A DNA stretch of 32,000 nt from Corynebacterium glutamicum ATCC 13032 (lineage in GTDB: Bacteria > Actinomycetota > Actinomycetes > Mycobacteriales > Mycobacteriaceae): the NCBI RefSeq assembly GCF_000011325.1, contig NC_003450.3:450001-482000 (forward strand), given 5' to 3'. A program made the translations under genes and the position numbers. The stretch's first letter is position 1; each line of letters starts with the position of its first letter. Shown one piece after another: positions 1,914 to 11,096 of this stretch. The notes under the pieces are model-generated. The model was given only the letters and a program-made list of their open reading frames with translations, did not search any database and was not told the DNA's origin.

Positions 1914-2636
1914 GAAAATAAGGCCCTTCTTGAAATTTTAAGGAGTGTTTGGGGGAGGAAATAACATCTTTACATGAATGGGCGCATTTCGCAGGACTTA
2001 TGGAAATGTCTGCACGTTTGGCGATGTTTCAGTTAGACCTTGAAGGGGAGACCTACATGAAGAGAGGTATTTCACGGATTCAATCCCTTAGATCGGGAGC
2101 CCTACAAGCAACTGCAATCTGCAGTGAACTGCCCAACAAAGGGGTGGGTTATGTGGGTAGGGAAAAGAATTATTTGTACCGCTGGCGGAACATCAAAAAG
2201 TGTTTGTGCTGAATCTGCCTGAACAGCTTGTATGGTGCATGAAAGGTGTGACCCAGGCTGCTAAAAGGGGACCTAATTAATAGGCCAAAAATGCCGTTTG
2301 GTAAAAGCAAGAATTGAAGCGGTTTTTCAAAACAGGCATGACTCAATTATCGTGTATATACCACACGGTAAACACCTGTTGAGAGGGTGGTCGGTTTTTA
2401 CGCCACCAATGTTTGAACTGGCCGTTTTCTTTGAAAATCGCGCTCGGTTTGGATGCCCTCGTAAAATAAGGTGCAAATATTGTGCGCCGACCAGTTATGT
2501 CCTCATCCGACGGCGGTCAGTGTGCTTCATTAAATTGTCGTGGACAATCCCGGATCGAAAATTTGATTCGGCTTTTTTCATGGCTGTTGATGGAGTACGT
2601 TGGTCGTTTTCGAGACAAGTACTAGAAAAGATATTG

Positions 2637-4433
2637 ATGACTATCGCCCATAAGCCCGAGATGGCTGAAACTACCGGGATCGAGACCAACCAGGTTTCCG
2701 AAACCATCGGGGTTGAATCGCTCACGCACGGAAACTTACGTCCTGTTTCATCTTTTGAGGGACAGCATGAGGGACAAACGGAAGAGTTACTTCCAGGCAA
2801 AGTCATTTTTGTTGGGGCCGGTCCCGGTAACCCTGATCTTCTTACAGTTCGTGCCCGTGAAGTTCTGGGCAACGCGGTTCGTGCGATTACTGATGAACAA
2901 GTACTAAGCGGCGTTCGAGCTTTTGTCGCCACTGAAATTCCTGTGCCGGAAGATAAGCTTCAGGCTGCGGAAGATGAGTACGAGCGCATCTGCATTGAAG
3001 CGAAGGAGAACGGTGCACGCCGTAAGCCTCCTCGTCCAGCACCACCAACCGCTGCAGAGATCACGGAAGTTTCTGAGGCGACTCCAGCTCAGATTGTTGA
3101 GCTTGTGCAGGATGCTCTTTCTTATGGTGGAGATGTTATTCGTCTTGTCACCGGCAACCCATTGAGCAGCGATGCCACACTGGCTGAGATCTCTGCAGTT
3201 TCCGAGGCTGGCCTGGAGTTCCAGGTGGTTCCAGGTATGTCTTTGCCTGCAACGGTTCCTGCATTTGCGGGAATTGCGTTGGGTTCTACCTACACCGAAA
3301 CTGATGTCAACGGTCAAAACTTGGACTGGGATCAGTTGGCTAGCGCACCTCAGCCTTTGGTGCTGCAGGCCCGCGTGGATGACCTTTCCCGTATTGCACA
3401 GGAACTAAAGGCCCGCAATATGTCTTTGGAAACTCCTGTTTCTGTCACCGCTAACGGCACCACCCGTTTGCAGCGCACCTATGACACCACTTTAGGTCTG
3501 TTGCACAAGCTTGATGCTGAACTAAGCGGACCTTTGGTTGTTACCTTGGGCAAGGGTGTGGATGATCGCTCCAAGTACTCTTGGTGGGAAAACCGCGCTC
3601 TGTACGGTTGGCGTGTGCTGGTGCCTCGCGCTCGGGAGCAAGCGGCATCCATGTCCGCACGTCTGAGCAGCCACGGCGCTATCCCGCAGGAAGTCCCTAC
3701 CATTTCTGTCGAACCACCGCGCAACCCAGCGCAAATGGAACGCGCCATCAAGGGCATCGTCGAAGGACGCTACCAGTGGGTTGTCCTCACCAGCGTCAAC
3801 GCAGTGAAGGCAGTCTGGGAGAAAATCACCGAATTCGGCCTCGATTCACGTTCCTTCGCGGGCGTCCGCATCGCCGCAGTCGGTGAAAAAACCGCCGCTG
3901 AGATCCGCGCGCTCGGCATCACGCCGGAGCTTCTGCCTGCACGTACCAGGCAAAATGCGCAAGGGCTTGTCGACGTGTTCCCCGAATATTTCGAAGAACT
4001 CGATCCAGTCGGCCGTGTCCTCTTGCCGCGCGCAGATATCGCAACCGACGTGCTTGTCGACGGCCTGACCCACCTTGGTTGGGAAGTCGAAGACGTGGTG
4101 GCTTACCGCACCGTCCGCGCAGCACCACCAAGCGCTGATATCCGAGATATGATCAAGACCGGCGGATTTGATGCAGTTGCCTTCACCTCTTCGTCGACCG
4201 TGAAGAACCTCGTTGGTATCGCGGGTAAACCACACCCACGCACCATCGTCGCGTGCATCGGACCCATGACTGCAGCGACCGCTGAAGAACTGGGACTGCG
4301 CGTTGATGTCATGCCAGAGATCGCCGAAGTACCAGAACTGATCGACGCTCTTGCGGAACACGTGGCGGATCTGCGCGCTAAGGGCGAGCTGCCGCCGCCG
4401 AGGAAGAAACGCAGGCGTCGAAAAGCGTCTTAA
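2637..4433 (+). CDS. hemD: Fusion protein: tetrapyrrole (SUMT/CobA-like) methylase domain plus uroporphyrinogen-III synthase (HemD) domain
   Basis: The track ORF 2298..4433 is in this frame. I prefer the ATG at 2637 (MTIAHKPEMAE...) because the upstream 113 codons are AT-rich and not protein-like. The N-terminal half carries a TP-methylase signature variant (GKVIFVGAGPGNPDLLT, later VVPGMSLPATVPAFAGIAL). The C-terminal half (GWRVLVPRAREQA...TSVNAVKAVW...AAVGEKTA...FTSSSTVKN) is HemD-like. The exact start is uncertain. Confidence 0.8.
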   Translation: MTIAHKPEMAETTGIETNQVSETIGVESLTHGNLRPVSSFEGQHEGQTEELLPGKVIFVGAGPGNPDLLTVRAREVLGNAVRAITDEQVLSGVRAFVATEIPVPEDKLQAAEDEYERICIEAKENGARRKPPRPAPPTAAEITEVSEATPAQIVELVQDALSYGGDVIRLVTGNPLSSDATLAEISAVSEAGLEFQVVPGMSLPATVPAFAGIALGSTYTETDVNGQNLDWDQLASAPQPLVLQARVDDLSRIAQELKARNMSLETPVSVTANGTTRLQRTYDTTLGLLHKLDAELSGPLVVTLGKGVDDRSKYSWWENRALYGWRVLVPRAREQAASMSARLSSHGAIPQEVPTISVEPPRNPAQMERAIKGIVEGRYQWVVLTSVNAVKAVWEKITEFGLDSRSFAGVRIAAVGEKTAAEIRALGITPELLPARTRQNAQGLVDVFPEYFEELDPVGRVLLPRADIATDVLVDGLTHLGWEVEDVVAYRTVRAAPPSADIRDMIKTGGFDAVAFTSSSTVKNLVGIAGKPHPRTIVACIGPMTAATAEELGLRVDVMPEIAEVPELIDALAEHVADLRAKGELPPPRKKRRRRKAS

Positions 4434-4458
4434 AAGGTTTTTCACTAGGGTGTTGTCC

Positions 4459-4878
4459 ATGGACATCCAGCAGCTAGACGCCGAAACAACAGCATGGAAA
4501 GACAGCCTCCTGCGCGCCGCACAGGAGGCTGGTTTTCATTTTGAGCCACCGAAACTCTTCGAGGATTTTGAGACCATGGTGGAGCAGTACAAGCAGGCAG
4601 CTGCGAGCGACCCGGACATTGATGTCACTGATATTCAGCAAATGTGGGGCATCGTGGTGGGGGAGTACCTGCGCGAAAAAATGGGCATGGAATGGGTCGT
4701 CATCACCGATGACTACGGCACTGACCTCGCGATTCTAGCCACGGCACCCAACGGGGACCACGTATATTCCTGCCCCATCATCGTGGTGGGCAAGCGCTTT
4801 TCACCCGACTATGAACCTGGTCAGCTGGAGTTTTTCTGCAATCAATTCATGGTGACGTCGCTCGCTCAACTGCAGTGA
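4459..4878 (+). CDS. Hypothetical acidic cytoplasmic protein, 139 aa, embedded between hemD and hemB
   Basis: In frame with track ORF 4351..4878. The ATG at 4459 (MDIQQLDAETTAWKD...) lies just after the hemD stop; the longer form would overlap the hemD 3' end. I recognise no catalytic motif. Confidence 0.6.
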   Translation: MDIQQLDAETTAWKDSLLRAAQEAGFHFEPPKLFEDFETMVEQYKQAAASDPDIDVTDIQQMWGIVVGEYLREKMGMEWVVITDDYGTDLAILATAPNGDHVYSCPIIVVGKRFSPDYEPGQLEFFCNQFMVTSLAQLQ

Positions 4879-4966: not shown

Positions 4967-5986
4967 ATGAGCACTTCTTCTGATTACTCCCACGCACTAA
5001 TTCGTCGTCCGCGCCGACTTCGCGCCAACCCTGCGATGCGGGAACTAGTCGCGGAAACCGCATTGCGCCCGGCGGATCTTATTCTGCCAATGTTCTTTGC
5101 GGATGGAATCACTGAGGCACGTGAGATCTCCTCCATGCCGGGCGTTTATCAGCACACTGAAGATTCGCTGCTGCGTGCCGCCCATGAGGCTTTAGATGCT
5201 GGTGTTCGTTGCGTTGATCTGTTCGGTGTTCCAGTGGATGCGGACAAGGACTTCAATGGTTCCCAGGCATGGTCTGAAACCGGTGTGTTGAACCGTGCAC
5301 TTTCATCGCTGCGTAAGGAATTCGGCGATGACCTGCTGATTATGGCCGATACTTGCCTTGATGAGTTCACGGATCATGGTCACTGCGGCGTAGTTACCGA
5401 GGACCGCCATGGAAACGCAATCGTGGACAACGATGCCACTTTGCCGCTGTACCAGCAGATGGCTGTTGCTCAGGCTCGTGCCGGTGCACATATTGTGAGC
5501 CCTTCCGGAATGATGGACGGCCAGATCGCTGCTATTCGTGCAGCGTTGGATGAGGAAGGCTACCAGGACGTCGCCATCATGGCGTATTCCGCTAAGTATG
5601 CATCAGCATTCTTCGGACCTTTCCGCGAAGCAGTGGGATCCTCCCTCCAAGGCGATCGACGTACCTACCAGCAAGATCCTGCGAACCTGCGTGAGTCTCT
5701 CCTTGAGGCAGAGCTAGATATCGCAGAAGGAGCGGACTTCATTATGGTCAAGCCTGCACTGCCATACCTTGATGTGCTGACCCGCATCGCTGATACCTCA
5801 CCTGTCCCAGTGGCTGCCTACCAAGTTTCTGGTGAGTACGCGATGATCCAAGCAGCAGGCCGCAACGGTTGGGTTGACCTTGATGCAGTGATGATGGAAT
5901 CTTTGACCTCCATCAAGCGTGCCGGTGCAAACCAAATCCTCACGTACTTTGCCGTTGACGCTGCCCGCGCACTGCGAAACGCTTAA
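4967..5986 (+). CDS. hemB: Porphobilinogen synthase (delta-aminolevulinate dehydratase)
   Basis: 339-aa ORF with typical PBGS sequence: RRPRRLR N-terminus, metal-site block [14 protein letters not shown], a Schiff-base lysine context ([10 protein letters not shown]), and [10 protein letters not shown]. Confidence 0.95.
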
Positions 5987-6015: not shown

Positions 6016-6600
6016 ATGAGCATGCTTCCCAATCTCACACCGAAGAAATCTGCCCCGCCTTCATCTTCTGCTTCTGCGAAAAATGCTGGAGAAAAGAAGG
6101 AAGACACCGTCAAGCTCCTGATTCAGATGTGGGCTGTGATGATCGGTTTGGAGCTGCTGCACCAGATCTTAAACGTGGTGATGAGCTTTACGGACCCGAC
6201 TGCGCTGCGGACTGTTGCCAAAGAACAAGCAGCAGCACAGGGGCTTTCCGATGGCATTGTTAACGCCACAGTCATCGCAGCAATCTTGGTCATGGGATTC
6301 TTCAACCTCATTGTGATTGCCATTTTGTCCTGGATGGTGGTGATGGTGAAAAACCGTTCCAAACGCCTACCGACGGCATTCTTGCTGCTCACCATCTTCA
6401 GTTTCTTCTTTATCCTAAGAGTCTTGATGCTGTTTTTCGCCTCACCTGGTGGGACTGATGTTCCAATGGCACTATTTGCTATCGACGGTTGTGTACAAAT
6501 CCTCGTCGGAGTGAGCGCCGGTGTGGCATATGCGCTCTCGCGCACTGAGCAGCCTGTCAAAATGCTCACCGACTACGCACCAGAAGACGCTAAACGGTAA
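6016..6600 (+). CDS. Integral membrane protein, about 4 TM, unknown function
   Basis: 194-aa ORF starting 29 nt after hemB. It has a Ser/Pro/Lys-rich N-terminus followed by four hydrophobic segments. The position matches the small TM proteins that follow hemB in other actinobacteria (from my recollection of synteny). Confidence 0.7.
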   Translation: MSMLPNLTPKKSAPPSSSASAKNAGEKKEDTVKLLIQMWAVMIGLELLHQILNVVMSFTDPTALRTVAKEQAAAQGLSDGIVNATVIAAILVMGFFNLIVIAILSWMVVMVKNRSKRLPTAFLLLTIFSFFFILRVLMLFFASPGGTDVPMALFAIDGCVQILVGVSAGVAYALSRTEQPVKMLTDYAPEDAKR

Positions 6601-6640: not shown

Positions 6641-7153
6641 ATGCCAAGCATGTTCCCATCACCCGCAACTGGCGGAGATGACATCAACCGACGCCCCCTG
6701 AATGAACCAAACGCAGATGCAACCACCATCCCCACTGCACTAAAAGTGGTGTTCTGGATGCTGTTTGCCACTGCAGCGTTCATGATTTTTACAGGCCTGG
6801 TGATGTACACCGCCGGATACACGGGACCTGATGATGTGGATGAGAGCTACAAAGCCGTTGTGGTGAACAACCAGGAGTTCATCGGTGGCATCAATGCCTT
6901 TGCTGGCGTCGTGATTGCTGCACTTACTTCACAACTGCCAAAGGGCGGCAAGAATCCGCGCCGTCTTTTGTTGGCCATCATGTTGTTGGTATTGCTGACA
7001 GATCTGTTGTCTTTTGCCACCCGCGCTGGAGGCTTCGCACTCGCAATCATCGCAGTCTTGTTGGCTTTGGAAGCACTCTTGATGTTCCGCCCAGCAGTCA
7101 ATGATCACATTGACCGAAATCATATGGCTCGTGTAATGAATCGCGAGAAGTAG
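6641..7153 (+). CDS. Integral membrane protein, about 4 TM, unknown function
   Basis: 170-aa ORF with the RBS-like sequence acggag upstream. It has four hydrophobic segments and a layout similar to the preceding ORF. Confidence 0.7.
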   Translation: MPSMFPSPATGGDDINRRPLNEPNADATTIPTALKVVFWMLFATAAFMIFTGLVMYTAGYTGPDDVDESYKAVVVNNQEFIGGINAFAGVVIAALTSQLPKGGKNPRRLLLAIMLLVLLTDLLSFATRAGGFALAIIAVLLALEALLMFRPAVNDHIDRNHMARVMNREK

Positions 7154-7154
7154 A

Positions 7155-7175
7155 ACGGTTCGACCGTACTTTTTC
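7155..7175 (+). terminator. Weak terminator-like hairpin plus T-run after the membrane-protein gene
   Basis: acggt-tcg-accgt (5-bp stem, 3-nt loop, 7155..7167) followed by acTTTTTc. The stem is short, so confidence is low. Confidence 0.25.
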
Positions 7176-7177
7176 GC

Positions 7178-7213
7178 TACCGTGAGTCTTACCGTGAGCC
7201 TTATACTGTGAGG
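7178..7213 (+). repeat. Three tandem direct repeats of TAC(C/T)GTGAG, upstream of the ATPase-like gene
   Basis: taccgtgagtct (7178..7189), taccgtgagcct (7190..7201), then ta+tactgtgagg (7202..7213). The core 9-mer starts at 7178, 7190 and 7204, 54-89 nt before the GTG start at 7267. Confidence 0.5.
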
Positions 7214-7266
7214 ACATTAAAAGTGACACCTCTTTTTCTATCTTTTACAACCCAAGAAGGTTTATC

Positions 7267-9903
7267 GTGAGCACACCGGATTCTTCCTCGGTGGACAAGG
7301 CCGTAAACACTGCTATCTCTGACGCCAAAACAGCGGCGCTCAAGGCAGGTGTTGGATTGAACCGAGCCACCGCCTCAGAAGAAGAGGAAGATTTAAGCTC
7401 AAGCATTAAGGTTTCTTTGGCCTTTGAGCTCGAGGGGTTAAGCAATGCACCATCGTTGATGGTGGTGGAAAAAGCCCTAGAGAAGATCCCCGGTGTATCC
7501 GCGGATCTGATTTACCCTTCACAAACTGCATGGATTACAGCAACTGATCGGGTACATCCCGAAACCCTCATTGAGGTGTTTGAGCAGTTCGGCATCAAAG
7601 CACACCTTTCTAATTCATCGCTGCTGCGCAGGCATCAACAGCTCAGCGCGGAAGTAAATAGGGAAGCACGCCTTGATCGTTACCGCTCCCGAATGGATGC
7701 CAAGCGAATCTCGCCTCGTGTGCGAAGGCATAACCGACAAGAAATGGTACATGCGGTACGCGCTCGTGAAAGTGGTTGGATTAAACGCAGGAATCACACC
7801 ACCTCGCAGCATGAAGACCCAATGTCGGGCGATGTGCTGTTCACCGCCCGCGCACTGATTACACCTAAGCGTTTGTGGGTGTCGTTGCCGTTTGCGCTCA
7901 TCGTATTGGCGTTATCGTTGAATCCTTCGTGGCAGTTTGATTATTGGCAGTGGTTGTCCGCTGTGTTGGCTATTCCTGTGGTGGTGTGGGGTGCCTGGCC
8001 GTTTCACCGCGCTGCAGCAGGCGGTATTCGTCGAGGAATTTCCGCTCTTGATGCGACCAGCTCAATCGCTATTGCTGCTGCATACGCGTGGTCTATCGCC
8101 ATGCTGTTGTTTGAAACCCCAGGAGGTAAATCCTGGCGGTCATATCCGTCCTGGTTCGCTTTTGACCACGGCACGTTGACCCAAAACGAGATTTATTTTG
8201 ATGTGGCCTGCGGAATCACCGTGTTGCTTCTTGCCGGACGGCTGCTGACAAGGCGTCGAAGCCAATCCAGTTTGTTAGCGGAACTTGGTCGCCTCCAAAT
8301 CGATCCACAGCGCATTGTCACTGTGGTGCGTAAACACCGATTGAAGCGCGTAGTCCAGGAACTGAACATTCCAGTGCAGGAAGTCCGTGTCAATGACGAT
8401 GTGAAAGTTCCACCTAATACCACGATCCCTGTGGATGGCACTGTCATCGGTGGCGGTTCGCGGATCGCAGCTAGCATCATCATGGGACAAGACCAGCGTG
8501 ATGTAAAAGTAAATGACAAAGTTTTCGCCGGCAGCCTCAACCTCGAATCCGAAATCAAGGTTCGTGTTATTCGCACTGGTCACCGCACCCGCATCGCCGC
8601 GGTACATAGGTGGGTTAAAGAAGCGACGTTGAAGGAAAACCGCCACAATAGGGCAGCGATCCGTTCGGCCGGTAACCTTGTGCCCATCACGTTCACCCTT
8701 GCTGTGGTGGACTTCTGTCTGTGGGCACTGATCTCTGGAAACATCAACGCTGCATTTACCACTACCTTGGCTGTCCTTGCGTGCGTGGCTCCGGTGGCCT
8801 TAGCGTTGTCTGCTCCACTTGCCACGAGGAATTCCATCGAAGCTGCAGCACGACACGGTATTTTGGTCCGCTCTGGTGAAATTTTCCGAGTTCTCGATGA
8901 TGTGGATACTGCCGTATTTAATCGTGTGGGCACACTAACCGATGGCGAAATGACAGTGGAAACCGTCACAGCAGACAAAGGCGAGGACCCAGAACTAGTG
9001 CTGCGTGTCGCCGGGGCGTTGGCCATGGAATCCCACCACGCGATTTCCAAAGCACTGGTGAAAGCATCCCGTGAAGCTCGTGATACCGGCGCCGGTGGTG
9101 AAGATGTCCCACACTGGATTGAAGTAGGCAACGTGGAAATCACCGAAGCCGGCTCATTCCAAGCAACCATCGAGCTGCCACTGATCAAACCATCTGGCGA
9201 AAAAATCATGCGCACCACAGAAGCACTCCTGTGGCGACCACGATCCATGACAGAAGTCCGTGAGCACTTAAGCCCCCGACTAGTGGCAGCAGCAACCTCA
9301 GGTGGCGCACCACTGATCGTGCGATGGAAAGGCAAAGACCGCGGAGTTATCACTCTAAGTGACCACGTGAGATCAGATTCCTCCGATGCGATTATTGCGA
9401 TTGAAGAACAAGGCATCGAGACCATGATGCTTTCACGTGATACTTACCCGGTGGCACGTCGATACGCAGACAGCTTAGGCATCACCCACGTCTTGGCCGG
9501 CATCGCGCCGGGCAAGAAAGCCCAGGTCGTCCGTGCAGTCCACACCCGCGGATCCACTGTCGCGATGATCGGCGATGAATCAGTAATGGACTGTTTGAAA
9601 GTCGCTGACGTGGGTGTACTGATGGGCGTCGATCGTCCCTCAGATCTGCGTGATGATTCCGATGACCCGGCAGCTGACGTTGTGGTCATGCGCGAAGAGG
9701 TCATGAGCGTGCCGACGCTGTTTAAACTGGCTCGACGCTACGCCAAGTTGGTCAATGGCAATATTGCTCTGGCCTGGATCTATAACGGTGTTGCCATGGT
9801 GCTTGCAGTGTCTGGCTTGCTGCATCCAATGGCTGCGACCGTGGCTATGCTGGCGTCTTCGCTGCTTATTGAATGGCGCTCGGGCAGGGCGCGCAAGTAC
9901 TAA
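7267..9903 (+). CDS. P1B-type (CopA-like) cation-transporting ATPase homologue with all catalytic signatures substituted; candidate pseudo-enzyme
   Basis: 878-aa ORF with a GTG start and gaagg 7 nt upstream. It is collinear with heavy-metal P-type ATPases: an HMA-like N-terminus, 8 TM segments, A-domain (IPVDGTVIGG...), P/N domains (AARHGILVRSGE...), and a C-terminal YN...MLASS. At the aligned positions it reads NRVGT rather than DKTGT, MGQD rather than TGES, CVAP rather than CPC, and GDESVMD rather than GDGxND. Confidence 0.85.
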   Translation: MSTPDSSSVDKAVNTAISDAKTAALKAGVGLNRATASEEEEDLSSSIKVSLAFELEGLSNAPSLMVVEKALEKIPGVSADLIYPSQTAWITATDRVHPETLIEVFEQFGIKAHLSNSSLLRRHQQLSAEVNREARLDRYRSRMDAKRISPRVRRHNRQEMVHAVRARESGWIKRRNHTTSQHEDPMSGDVLFTARALITPKRLWVSLPFALIVLALSLNPSWQFDYWQWLSAVLAIPVVVWGAWPFHRAAAGGIRRGISALDATSSIAIAAAYAWSIAMLLFETPGGKSWRSYPSWFAFDHGTLTQNEIYFDVACGITVLLLAGRLLTRRRSQSSLLAELGRLQIDPQRIVTVVRKHRLKRVVQELNIPVQEVRVNDDVKVPPNTTIPVDGTVIGGGSRIAASIIMGQDQRDVKVNDKVFAGSLNLESEIKVRVIRTGHRTRIAAVHRWVKEATLKENRHNRAAIRSAGNLVPITFTLAVVDFCLWALISGNINAAFTTTLAVLACVAPVALALSAPLATRNSIEAAARHGILVRSGEIFRVLDDVDTAVFNRVGTLTDGEMTVETVTADKGEDPELVLRVAGALAMESHHAISKALVKASREARDTGAGGEDVPHWIEVGNVEITEAGSFQATIELPLIKPSGEKIMRTTEALLWRPRSMTEVREHLSPRLVAAATSGGAPLIVRWKGKDRGVITLSDHVRSDSSDAIIAIEEQGIETMMLSRDTYPVARRYADSLGITHVLAGIAPGKKAQVVRAVHTRGSTVAMIGDESVMDCLKVADVGVLMGVDRPSDLRDDSDDPAADVVVMREEVMSVPTLFKLARRYAKLVNGNIALAWIYNGVAMVLAVSGLLHPMAATVAMLASSLLIEWRSGRARKY

Positions 9904-10019
9904 CCAGCAATTCCCAAGCCCAAAAACCCCTCCCATATAGTTCTTTTTACTGATGCATTGTCCTCAATTAGGTGTGGCTTCTTTTCCTAAATTGGGATAA
10001 ATGGGGCAAGATTGAGCGC

Positions 10020-11096
10020 ATGTCTGCTCTTACTATTCCAGCTGCGCGTCGCACGCTAAATAACGCGCCCATTATTGATGCCGCTAATGGCAAGACCCCG
10101 ACTCGCACTCCGGTGTGGTTTATGCGCCAGGCGGGTAGGTCGTTGCCTGAGTACAAGAAGGTCCGTGAGGGAATCAGCATGTTGGATTCCTGTTTCATGC
10201 CGGAGTTGTTGGCGGAGATTACTTTGCAGCCGGTTCGTCGTCATGATGTGGATGCTGCGATTTTGTTCTCTGACATTGTGGTGCCGTTGCGTGCTGCGGG
10301 TGTTGGTGTGGAAATCGTGGCGGGTCGTGGACCTGTGTTGGATGCGCCGGTGCGGAGCCGTGGGGATGTGTTGAATCTTCCTATTTTGGAGGGCAACGTT
10401 CCGGAGGTGGAGCAGGGTATTGGCATCATTTTGGATGAGTTGTCTGATTCTCAGGCGTTGATTGGTTTTGCTGGTGCGCCGTTTACGTTGGCGAGTTACT
10501 TGGTTGAGGGTGGTCCTTCCAAGAATCATGAGAAGACCAAAGCAATGATGCATGGTGATCCTGAGACGTGGCATGCGTTGATGGCTCGTTTGGTGCCGAC
10601 GATTGTGAATTCTTTGAAGTCGCAGATCGATGCGGGTATCGATGCGGTGCAGTTGTTTGATTCGTGGGCTGGGTTCCTCACTGAGCGTGATTACACCGAG
10701 TTCGTGTTGCCGTATTCCACTGAGATTTTGGAGGAAGTGGGCAAGTACCAGCTGCCTCGTATTCACTTTGGTGTGGGTACTGGTGAGTTGCTTGGTGCGA
10801 TGAGCAAGGCTGGCTCAGAGGTCATGGGTGTGGATTGGCGGGTGCCGTTGGATAAGGCTGCGGAGCGTATTGCTGCGGTATCAGGTCCTAAGGTGTTGCA
10901 GGGTAACCTCGATCCTGCGTTGTTGTTTGCGGGTCGCGCACCTTTGACTAAGGAAATTGAGCGCATCAAGGCAGAGGCTCAGACTGCTGTTGATGCAGGT
11001 CATGCAACGGGCCATATCTTTAACCTTGGTCATGGTGTGCTTCCTAATACGGTGGCGGAAGATATTACTGAAGCCGTCTCCATCATTCATTCTTAA
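10020..11096 (+). CDS. hemE: Uroporphyrinogen decarboxylase
   Basis: In frame with track ORF 9972..11096. The ATG at 10020 gives MSALTIPAARRTLNNAPIIDAANGKTPTRTPVWFMRQAGRSLPEY, the classic HemE N-terminal PVWxMRQAGR motif at the usual distance from the start. Confidence 0.9.
   Translation: MSALTIPAARRTLNNAPIIDAANGKTPTRTPVWFMRQAGRSLPEYKKVREGISMLDSCFMPELLAEITLQPVRRHDVDAAILFSDIVVPLRAAGVGVEIVAGRGPVLDAPVRSRGDVLNLPILEGNVPEVEQGIGIILDELSDSQALIGFAGAPFTLASYLVEGGPSKNHEKTKAMMHGDPETWHALMARLVPTIVNSLKSQIDAGIDAVQLFDSWAGFLTERDYTEFVLPYSTEILEEVGKYQLPRIHFGVGTGELLGAMSKAGSEVMGVDWRVPLDKAAERIAAVSGPKVLQGNLDPALLFAGRAPLTKEIERIKAEAQTAVDAGHATGHIFNLGHGVLPNTVAEDITEAVSIIHS

Follow-up and report, generated by a model that had tools for sequence, protein, structure and literature searches.

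This analysis concerns a stretch of 32,000 nucleotides from Corynebacterium glutamicum ATCC 13032 (contig NC_003450.3, positions 450,001 to 482,000 of the forward strand; hereafter, the window) in which genes for heme synthesis and cytochrome c maturation lie together, and one gene within it, cg0515 (7267..9903, forward strand), which stands between hemB and hemE. The gene begins with GTG and encodes 878 amino acids. Database names for its orthologues are heavy-metal-translocating or copper-exporting ATPase. We argue that cg0515 is instead a maintained, transcribed and catalytically dead descendant of a P1B-1 (CopA/CtpA-B-type) copper pump, found across Corynebacterium, which probably acts as a non-pumping membrane sensor or scaffold with a rebuilt pocket; to this reading as a whole we attach a probability of roughly 0.55.

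The locus tag was assigned by counting genes back from hemE (cg0516) and from published transcriptome tables. Translation of the open reading frame (ORF) gives a protein identical to AGT04441.1 of strain MB001; in the ATCC 13032 entry, BAB97827.1, this protein has a shorter start. Pfam places an E1-E2_ATPase domain at residues 350-530 (E 2.4e-28) and a Hydrolase/HAD domain at residues 548-771 (E 6.7e-13), together with a sub-threshold trace of an HMA domain at residues 66-109 (E 0.11). The closest solved structure is Legionella CopA (3rfu, E 7.9e-53), to which HMMER aligns the protein collinearly across residues 199-859. The generic P-type model of NCBIfam, TIGR01494, is passed (122.9 bits; cut-off 62.3); the heavy-metal P1B model TIGR01525 (309.6 bits; cut-off 346.25) and TIGR01511 (249.3; cut-off 397) are not reached.

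A model built with AlphaFold2 (AF2) from an alignment of family members (alignment A1) has a predicted local distance difference test score (pLDDT) of 86.1 and a predicted template modelling score (pTM) of 0.72. It comprises a ferredoxin-like N-terminus, a linker, eight membrane helices, and the actuator (A), phosphorylation (P) and nucleotide-binding (N) domains. The linker, about 80 residues in length, is unmatched by canonical relatives, most of whose matches begin at about residue 199. Compared with solved structures by Foldseek, the model matches copper, zinc and Kdp pumps with a probability of 1.00; over the whole body it matches copper pumps in the E1 state (AfCopA 7r0g, template modelling (TM) score 0.85, root mean square deviation 4.7 Å; ATP7B 7xun, TM 0.78), and TM scores to E2P and E2.Pi structures are 0.44-0.51. 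The A, P and N domains and membrane helical core of a P-type fold are therefore recovered by Pfam, TIGR01494, AF2 and Foldseek alike; the curated P1B family scores (TIGR01525, TIGR01511) set the protein outside their family.

The motif columns come from two alignments, the one made by HMMER to Legionella CopA and one made by MAFFT in which ten canonical actinobacterial CopA proteins serve as references; each column was counted in 84 family sequences and the ten references. Where every reference has the phosphorylated Asp, all 84 family sequences have Asn; where the references have Lys in the next position, all 84 have Arg. The Gly of the TGD motif, also present in 10/10 references, is Arg in 84/84, so that the family reads S/T-R-D. 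In the GDGxND hinge the first Asp survives in 72 of the 84, the Asn column holds Ser or Asp, and the second Asp column holds Val in 74. The loop at the position of TGES (T-G-E in 10/10 references) differs in residues and in length across the family; this free drift indicates that the loop has become dispensable. At the SEHP column the family has the consensus S-D-H-P with an invariant His (H591), and the S-H-H-A of cg0515 is a peculiarity of the C. glutamicum group.

The copper ligands have been replaced as well. The first Cys column of the CPC site holds Ala in 65, Gly in 14 and Cys in three of the 84 sequences, and the second holds Val in 79 (Cys in 10/10 references at both); P509 is invariant. 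The Met at which copper enters the canonical pump (M148 of Legionella CopA; Met in 10/10 references) is L261 here and Leu in 84/84, and the entry Asp (D337 in Legionella) is I465, with Thr, Ile or Val across the family. The HMA-like domain is also without CxxC, reading G57-L-S-N-A-P-S (7435..7455): at its two Cys columns (60 and 63), where all ten references have Cys, this residue is not among the five commonest of the family. A scan of the whole protein for the strings DKTGT, TGES and CPC finds none of them.

Other features have been kept or gained. The signatures of M5 and M6 persist (Y839 in 84/84, N840 in 77/84, M861 in 74/84 and S865 in 65/84). The M2 motif D-V-A-C-G, with D312 in 84/84 and C315 in 83/84, is a family-specific gain that is also present in the divergent C. 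otitidis orthologue described below; E869, at the end of M6, is a second gained residue specific to the family.

Much of this had been anticipated by the original prediction, made from the letters of the window and a list of its ORFs. It described an 878-codon open frame collinear with P1B heavy-metal ATPases, and the ORF list, Pfam and the 3rfu alignment agree. It proposed alignment to CopA and profile searches, and these place the substitutions that it listed for the phosphorylation, A-domain, N-domain, TGD and hinge motifs in the catalytic columns of both alignments. The YN and M-x-x-SS signatures it thought retained are indeed present (Y839-N840, M861-x-x-x-S865), and no intact DKTGT, TGES or CPx set lies elsewhere in the protein. 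The positions it gave for MGQD, CVAP (8782..8793) and GDESVMD are exact; its VFNRVGTLT needs a small correction, because 8917..8940 spells FNRVGTLT and V550 starts at 8914. It was right that the CPC site of the helix it called TM6 is lost, but the Cys that it read there is C506, two residues upstream of the CPC column (A508-P509-V510).

The replacements are not peculiar to C. glutamicum. Among 5.8 billion proteins searched there are 83 clusters of orthologues, with lengths of 810-1023 residues and identities of 42-99%; the next matches, canonical copper pumps, are abruptly lower at 30-34%. DKTGT, TGES, CPx and GDGxND are all four absent from 83/83 orthologue clusters and all present in 37/37 of the next-best matches. 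Clusters with a species name belong to Corynebacterium (at least about 35 species, including C. efficiens, C. callunae, C. deserti, C. xerosis, C. urealyticum, C. jeikeium, C. auris, C. canis and C. vitaeruminis), save one record labelled Staphylococcus chromogenes (P0044; 48% identity), which probably stems from a contaminated or mis-assigned assembly. When 1.84 billion representatives were searched exhaustively with a profile, 12 core members scored 955 bits or more, all of which carry F-N-R-x-G-(T/A) and (S/T)-R-D; the orthologue of C. otitidis scored 580 bits and canonical pumps 489 or less. This orthologue (P0288; 8001..10367 of locus L085) is the most divergent, with 36% identity and 788 residues, and lies in the same hem locus; S-R-D is kept in it, TGES, CPC and the hinge are missing, and Arg stands at the position of K751. 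The closest canonical protein with a full-length match is a CtpB-like pump of Sanguibacter. As the family retains the actinobacterial motifs QF-x-YWQW and WPFHRA, we conclude that it derives from a copper pump of the CtpA/B type.

A gene whose catalytic motifs are lost, and which evolves faster than the enzymes encoded beside it (identity between C. glutamicum and C. jeikeium is about 45% for cg0515 and 70% for hemB), might be a pseudogene in early neutral decay that is still open by chance in C. glutamicum. The data effectively refute this. The gene is full length in the 83 clusters and its ORF is intact in 20/20 loci examined. Alignment A1 (79 sequences) has a mean column identity of 44% and 69 invariant columns, among them F551, N552, R553, G555, H591, R724, D725, K751, P509 and Y839. 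Replacement residues are as fixed as retained ones: N552, R553, R724 and L261 are each found in 84/84 sequences, and yet across the 20 loci they are written in varying codons (AAC/AAT for N552; CGT/CGC/CGA/AGG for R553; CGT/CGA/CGC/CGG for R724; CTT/CTG/CTC for L261). Fixed residues with synonymous codon turnover are the mark of selection on the amino acid.

Substitution rates lead to the same conclusion. Ratios of non-synonymous to synonymous change (dN/dS) were calculated pairwise by the NG86 method against three relatives at 82-88% identity; with dS saturated at 1-2.8 they are approximate, and amount to 0.036-0.082 for cg0515, 0.023-0.034 for hemB, 0.043-0.065 for hemE and 0.061-0.063 for hemY. 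A dN of at most 0.13 beside a dS of 1-2.8 cannot be neutral. In all three comparisons every domain of cg0515 with a finite dS stays below 0.2. Constraint is strongest in the M3-M4 and P1 segments; M3-M4 (dN 0.046-0.086) is among the two regions of lowest dN in each comparison.

The gene is also transcribed, which again speaks against decay. In the primary transcriptome of C. glutamicum cg0515 has its own transcription start site (TSS) at genome position 457213 (window 7214) and belongs to the 14-gene primary operon cg0510-cg0524 (PMC3890552). A short terminator-like hairpin at 7155..7167 (ACGGTTCGACCGT, then a T-rich run) lies right behind the cg0514 stop codon and just upstream of the cg0515 promoter; despite this hairpin, RNA-seq reports read-through within the primary operon. 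In C. diphtheriae the interval between hemB and hemE holds DIP0405 (2,526 nucleotides, 'putative cation transport protein'), which drew 2,800-3,750 reads per sample in six samples, per kilobase comparable to hemB (PMC5784534). From its position, size and annotation we infer that this robustly transcribed gene is the orthologue of cg0515. Expression is known at the level of RNA; no evidence at the level of protein was found.

Cg0515 thus combines homology to an enzyme whose catalytic residues it is missing, purifying selection with long retention, and expression in the form of RNA, the hallmarks of a pseudoenzyme. The original prediction had left two alternatives, a maintained non-catalytic protein or a gene in early decay, and had suggested orthologue collection, dN/dS and published transcriptomes as means of choosing between them. 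The 83 full-length clusters with invariant replacements, ratios of 0.04-0.08, synonymous turnover and a mapped TSS and operon, with reads for DIP0405 besides, decide for the former. That cg0515 is a maintained dead pump we therefore regard as very probable.

The aspartyl-phosphate E1/E2 cycle defines P-type ATPases. Given this chemistry, a protein missing the phosphorylatable Asp, the TGES loop, the second Asp of GDGxND and the sulfur ligands of Cu(I) (CxxC, the entry Met and CPC) will not carry out ATP-driven E1/E2 copper pumping. The motif alignment supports the earlier claim that cg0515 cannot work as a pump and extends it to the whole orthologue family.

What the protein does instead is less certain. 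The invariance of F-N-R-x-G, S/T-R-D, K751, D725 and the N-domain His, together with the new D-V-A-C-G motif, suggests new uses for both the former pocket and the membrane core. The three exchanges in the pocket (Asp to Asn, Lys to Arg and Gly to Arg) would raise its basicity and free it from any need for Mg2+. Most likely it would serve to bind a nucleotide or phospho-anion without hydrolysis, or to hold the headpiece fixed in a single E1-like state; alternatively, R724 may fill the phosphate site and so freeze one state. In either case the protein would be a static membrane sensor or scaffold and not a transporter. Mutants of SERCA provide a precedent of sorts: neutralisation of the phosphorylated Asp (D351N/A) abolishes turnover and raises nucleotide affinity, and by analogy a natural Asn pocket may bind without hydrolysing. 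The SERCA proteins are, however, laboratory mutants of a Ca2+ pump with their other motifs intact, whereas the cg0515 family is altered also at the K, T and G positions and at the hinge Asp.

The same residues could be read differently, as those of a protein that still moves something: a transporter or channel for a substrate other than copper, passive or gated by nucleotide, which would use polar residues of M2, M4, M5 and M6 and form no phosphoenzyme. Few parts of the protein are as constrained as the membrane core, P509, Y839, N840, M861, S865 and D312 are kept, and C. otitidis has Asp in the phosphorylation column. Against this, the cytoplasmic entry residues have become Leu, and Thr, Ile or Val, the A-domain loop that couples headpiece to gate is wholly unconserved and the Mg2+ site is lost; moreover, no P-type fold is known to us to transport without a phosphoenzyme. 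We regard continued transport as improbable.

Where such a static sensor or scaffold would act is suggested by its surroundings. A genome scan with a single-sequence query located 16 Corynebacterium loci, the C. diphtheriae group not being among them, and the order hemD-hemB-(cg0513)-(cg0514)-cg0515-(hemE-hemY)-hemL-...-ccdA-resB-resC is found in 16/16, as it is in C. otitidis, where the gene overlaps hemE by 17 nucleotides, and in closer relatives. The original prediction had remarked on the position between hemB and hemE and the nearness of cytochrome c maturation genes; this position, upstream of ccdA, resB and resC, proves to be conserved. Corynebacterial genomes are in general highly syntenic. 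Given co-transcription with genes for heme synthesis and cytochrome c maturation, these pathways appear to be the most plausible clients.

This opens the way to a more specific version of our reading, in which cg0515 is an accessory factor for the biogenesis of heme, cytochromes or copper centres: copper or heme would be held or handed off at an outward-facing site formed by D312, C315, M861 and Y839/N840, with the headpiece as a structural plug. In the membrane core the exit-side carboxylate, YN and the Met/Ser pair persist, and a Cys has been gained one helical turn from that carboxylate, so that an outward-facing ligand site is possible. Conserved gene position, membership of the primary operon and the overlap with hemE in C. 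otitidis fit such a role. On the other side, gene order is the sole link, the single site made of D312, C315 and M861 is putative, and both regulation and gene content (considered below) fail to tie the gene to hemE. We hold a role of this kind tentatively, as a possibility clearly short of even odds, and rank the exact mechanism of the pocket below it. Doubtful, too, is the proposal that unites the two, in which a P-type fold would have become a non-hydrolysing membrane device at the root of the whole genus: the pocket (N-R-x-G-T / S-R-D / K) would sense a nucleotide or phospho-metabolite, the M2 site (D312/C315, with M861 and Y839-N840) would handle copper or heme, and the energy or metabolite status of the cell would thereby be coupled to heme and cytochrome assembly.

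Several observations weigh against a membrane sensor or scaffold with a rebuilt pocket and a heme connection. C. otitidis reads L-D-R-S-G-A, with Asp in the phosphorylation column, so that Asn is not universal; this Asp may have been kept from the ancestor or have arisen by reversion. The nucleotide contacts of the N domain are kept only in part: the column of AfCopA E457 holds Ala, Val or Met, and just one Gly is left in the GxG region. Ligand binding and an E1-like lock are suggested by residue chemistry and by one AF2 model, and the conformation of a single such model is weak evidence for a lock. As to selection, dS is saturated, as stated above, and strains of C. glutamicum differ by just 4-7 synonymous and 2-5 non-synonymous changes, too few to inform. 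The connection with heme, suggested by gene order and co-transcription, finds no echo in the regulatory data sets, in which the gene is not co-regulated with hemE: cg0515 is absent from the text supplementary tables of the HrrA study (PMC7337898), and deletion of dtxR alters hemE and hemG about four- to five-fold but leaves DIP0405 unaffected (PMC5784534). Finally, in the group of C. jeikeium, C. falsenii and C. kalidii (L003-L011, L014 and L032, including C. evansiae and related metagenome-assembled genomes) hemE and hemY are absent from the hem locus, and hemL directly follows the pseudo-ATPase gene, which stays.

The clients of a dead pump might also be living ones. Pseudoenzymes commonly regulate active paralogues, and the PacL scaffolds of mycobacterial metal pumps offer an analogous idea: cg0515 could be a non-catalytic partner that regulates or stabilises copper pumps in mixed oligomers or membrane platforms. 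It retains the platform helix motif WPFHRA, and C. diphtheriae has an annotated cation-transporting ATPase beside a heavy-metal-associated protein (DIP0061/DIP0062). No active pump or copper regulon gene, however, lies near cg0515 in the window or in the related loci, and a partner role appears slightly less probable even than continued transport.

The features on which these arguments draw are collected in Table 1, together with the neighbouring genes.

Table 1. Features of cg0515 and its surroundings. Positions are those of the window; residue numbers are those of the 878-residue protein.
Feature	Position	Strand	Comment
hemD/cobA fusion (cg0510)	2298..4433		
hemB	4967..5986		
cg0513	6016..6600	+	small multi-helix membrane protein, no Pfam match
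cg0514	6641..7153	+	small multi-helix membrane protein, no Pfam match
cg0515 promoter, -35 CCGTGA	7180..7185	+	PMC3890552, matched to window sequence
cg0515 promoter, -10 TATACT	7202..7207	+	PMC3890552, matched to window sequence
cg0515 5' untranslated region	7214..7266	+	53 nucleotides; same GTG start; PMC3890552 and window sequence
Ribosome-binding site AGAAG	7255..7259	+	PMC3890552 and window sequence
HMA-like ferredoxin-fold domain, residues 48-114	7408..7608	+	modelled as beta-alpha-beta-beta-alpha-beta, pLDDT about 90
Arg-rich helical linker, residues 116-195	7612..7851	+	R121 invariant; 170-188 predicted disordered
Membrane helices MA, MB, M1, M2	7852..8262	+	WPFHRA platform motif kept; L261 replaces entry Met
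M2 signature D312-V-A-C315-G	8200..8214	+	canonical relatives E-(A/V)-A-A-G
Actuator (A) domain	8302..8586	+	contains M406-G-Q-D loop
TGES column, M406-G-Q-D	8482..8493	+	
Helices M3-M4	8590..8853	+	contain former CPC site
CPC column, A508-P509-V510	8782..8796	+	span is C506-V-A508-P509-V510
DKTGT column, N552-R553-V554-G555-T556	8917..8934	+	span is F551-T556
Nucleotide-binding (N) domain	8992..9372	+	best-conserved region in family
SEHP column, S589-H-H591-A	9031..9042	+	
TGD column, S723-R724-D725	9433..9441	+	
K751, HAD motif III lysine	9517..9519	+	kept; K in 84/84, R in C. otitidis
GDGxND column, G769-D-E-S-V-M-D	9571..9591	+	
Helices M5-M6	9706..9897	+	include E869
Y839-N840	9781..9786	+	in M5-M6
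M861-L-A-S-S865	9847..9861	+	in M5-M6
hemE, hemY, hemL, histidine phosphatase, redoxin, ccdA, resB, resC			downstream of cg0515, in this order

Genes homologous to cg0513 and cg0514 precede the cg0515 orthologue in most Corynebacterium loci examined; in C. diphtheriae they are apparently missing, with just a 480-nucleotide gap in their place. Both evolve fast (dN/dS 0.06-0.14) and have homologues found only in Corynebacterium; a homologue search with cg0514 returned Corynebacterium proteins only, without annotation, and some sources apply the label 'tellurium resistance protein'. The two may be functional partners of cg0515. Horizontal acquisition of cg0515 was considered and rejected, its GC content and GC content at third codon positions matching those of the neighbouring genes. 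ORFs antisense to cg0515 (for example 8580..9425, minus strand) were judged spurious, since their position and length differ among relatives. The window contains no Rfam family and no tRNA.

Published start sites bear on three of the neighbouring gene models. The 711-residue ORF of cg0510, which begins with TTG, is probably called too long: the models in relatives have 598-687 residues, and the published TSS at genome position 452359 with its 277-nucleotide leader puts the start near window position 2637. For cg0511 (DUF3806; 4351..4878) a leaderless TSS lies at genome position 454458 (window 4459). The ORF of hemE (9972..11096) starts with GTG at 9972, and its published TSS at genome position 460019 (window 10020) coincides with an ATG, which indicates a leaderless hemE mRNA from 10020; hemE relatives begin with the same MSA... 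or MTT... residues, and an HrrA peak lies 17 bp from the hemE TSS.

A fixed and expressed family of this kind would show what the P-type scaffold can do without catalysis, and would offer structural work a natural D-to-N state. In inventories of metal homeostasis in C. glutamicum its current database names are almost certainly wrong on function; the same applies to C. diphtheriae if DIP0405 is the orthologue. A link to heme or cytochromes can be tested directly in C. glutamicum, a genetically tractable species with a well-studied respiratory chain. Searches of the literature by locus tag and accession found no paper on cg0515, DIP0405, Q8NT76, their synonyms or the clade, the P-type superfamily census and TCDB lying outside these searches; keyword searches found no precedent for pseudo- or inactive P-type ATPases. 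As far as could be found, a pseudoenzyme derived from P1B ATPases, that is, a fixed, genus-wide and expressed bacterial homologue without the whole cycle, is apparently undescribed.

Comparison with known systems brings out what is particular to cg0515. Other CopA-like representatives from the profile search also have broken DKTGT, TGES or CPC columns (P0304, P0339, P0383, P0388 and P0400; also P0363, P0365 and P0407). Unlike the cg0515 clade, the first five are scattered among canonical matches, each with its own pattern of substitutions and none with FNRxG, SRD or DVACG; to judge by their sequences, they appear to be independent losses. Pseudoenzymes of HAD or P-type fold are known from eukaryotes, for example the HAD-fold pseudophosphatase Tim50 and, within apicomplexan guanylate cyclases, a degenerate P4-ATPase-like domain. 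Like cg0515, each is an enzyme fold selected for a non-catalytic role after loss of the catalytic Asp; they are, however, members of different subfamilies and parts, fused or embedded, of known machines, whereas cg0515 is a free-standing bacterial homologue of P1B ATPases.

The nearest comparison is with the P1B-1 Cu(I) ATPases themselves (CopA of Legionella and Archaeoglobus, the actinobacterial CtpA, CtpB and CtpV types, and human ATP7A/B). The cg0515 protein shares their domain order and eight-helix topology, the Pro of CPC, YN, M-x-x-x-S, the His of the N domain, the Asp of TGD and the Lys of the P domain; with the actinobacterial members it shares QF-x-YWQW and WPFHRA, and its predicted fold resembles that of E1-state AfCopA. 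Unlike them it is without a phosphorylatable Asp, TGES, the Cys of CPC, CxxC, the entry Met and Asp and the second Asp of the hinge, and in addition it carries Arg where TGD has Gly, is extended behind the HMA-like domain by an Arg-rich stretch of about 80 residues, and has gained D-V-A-C-G.

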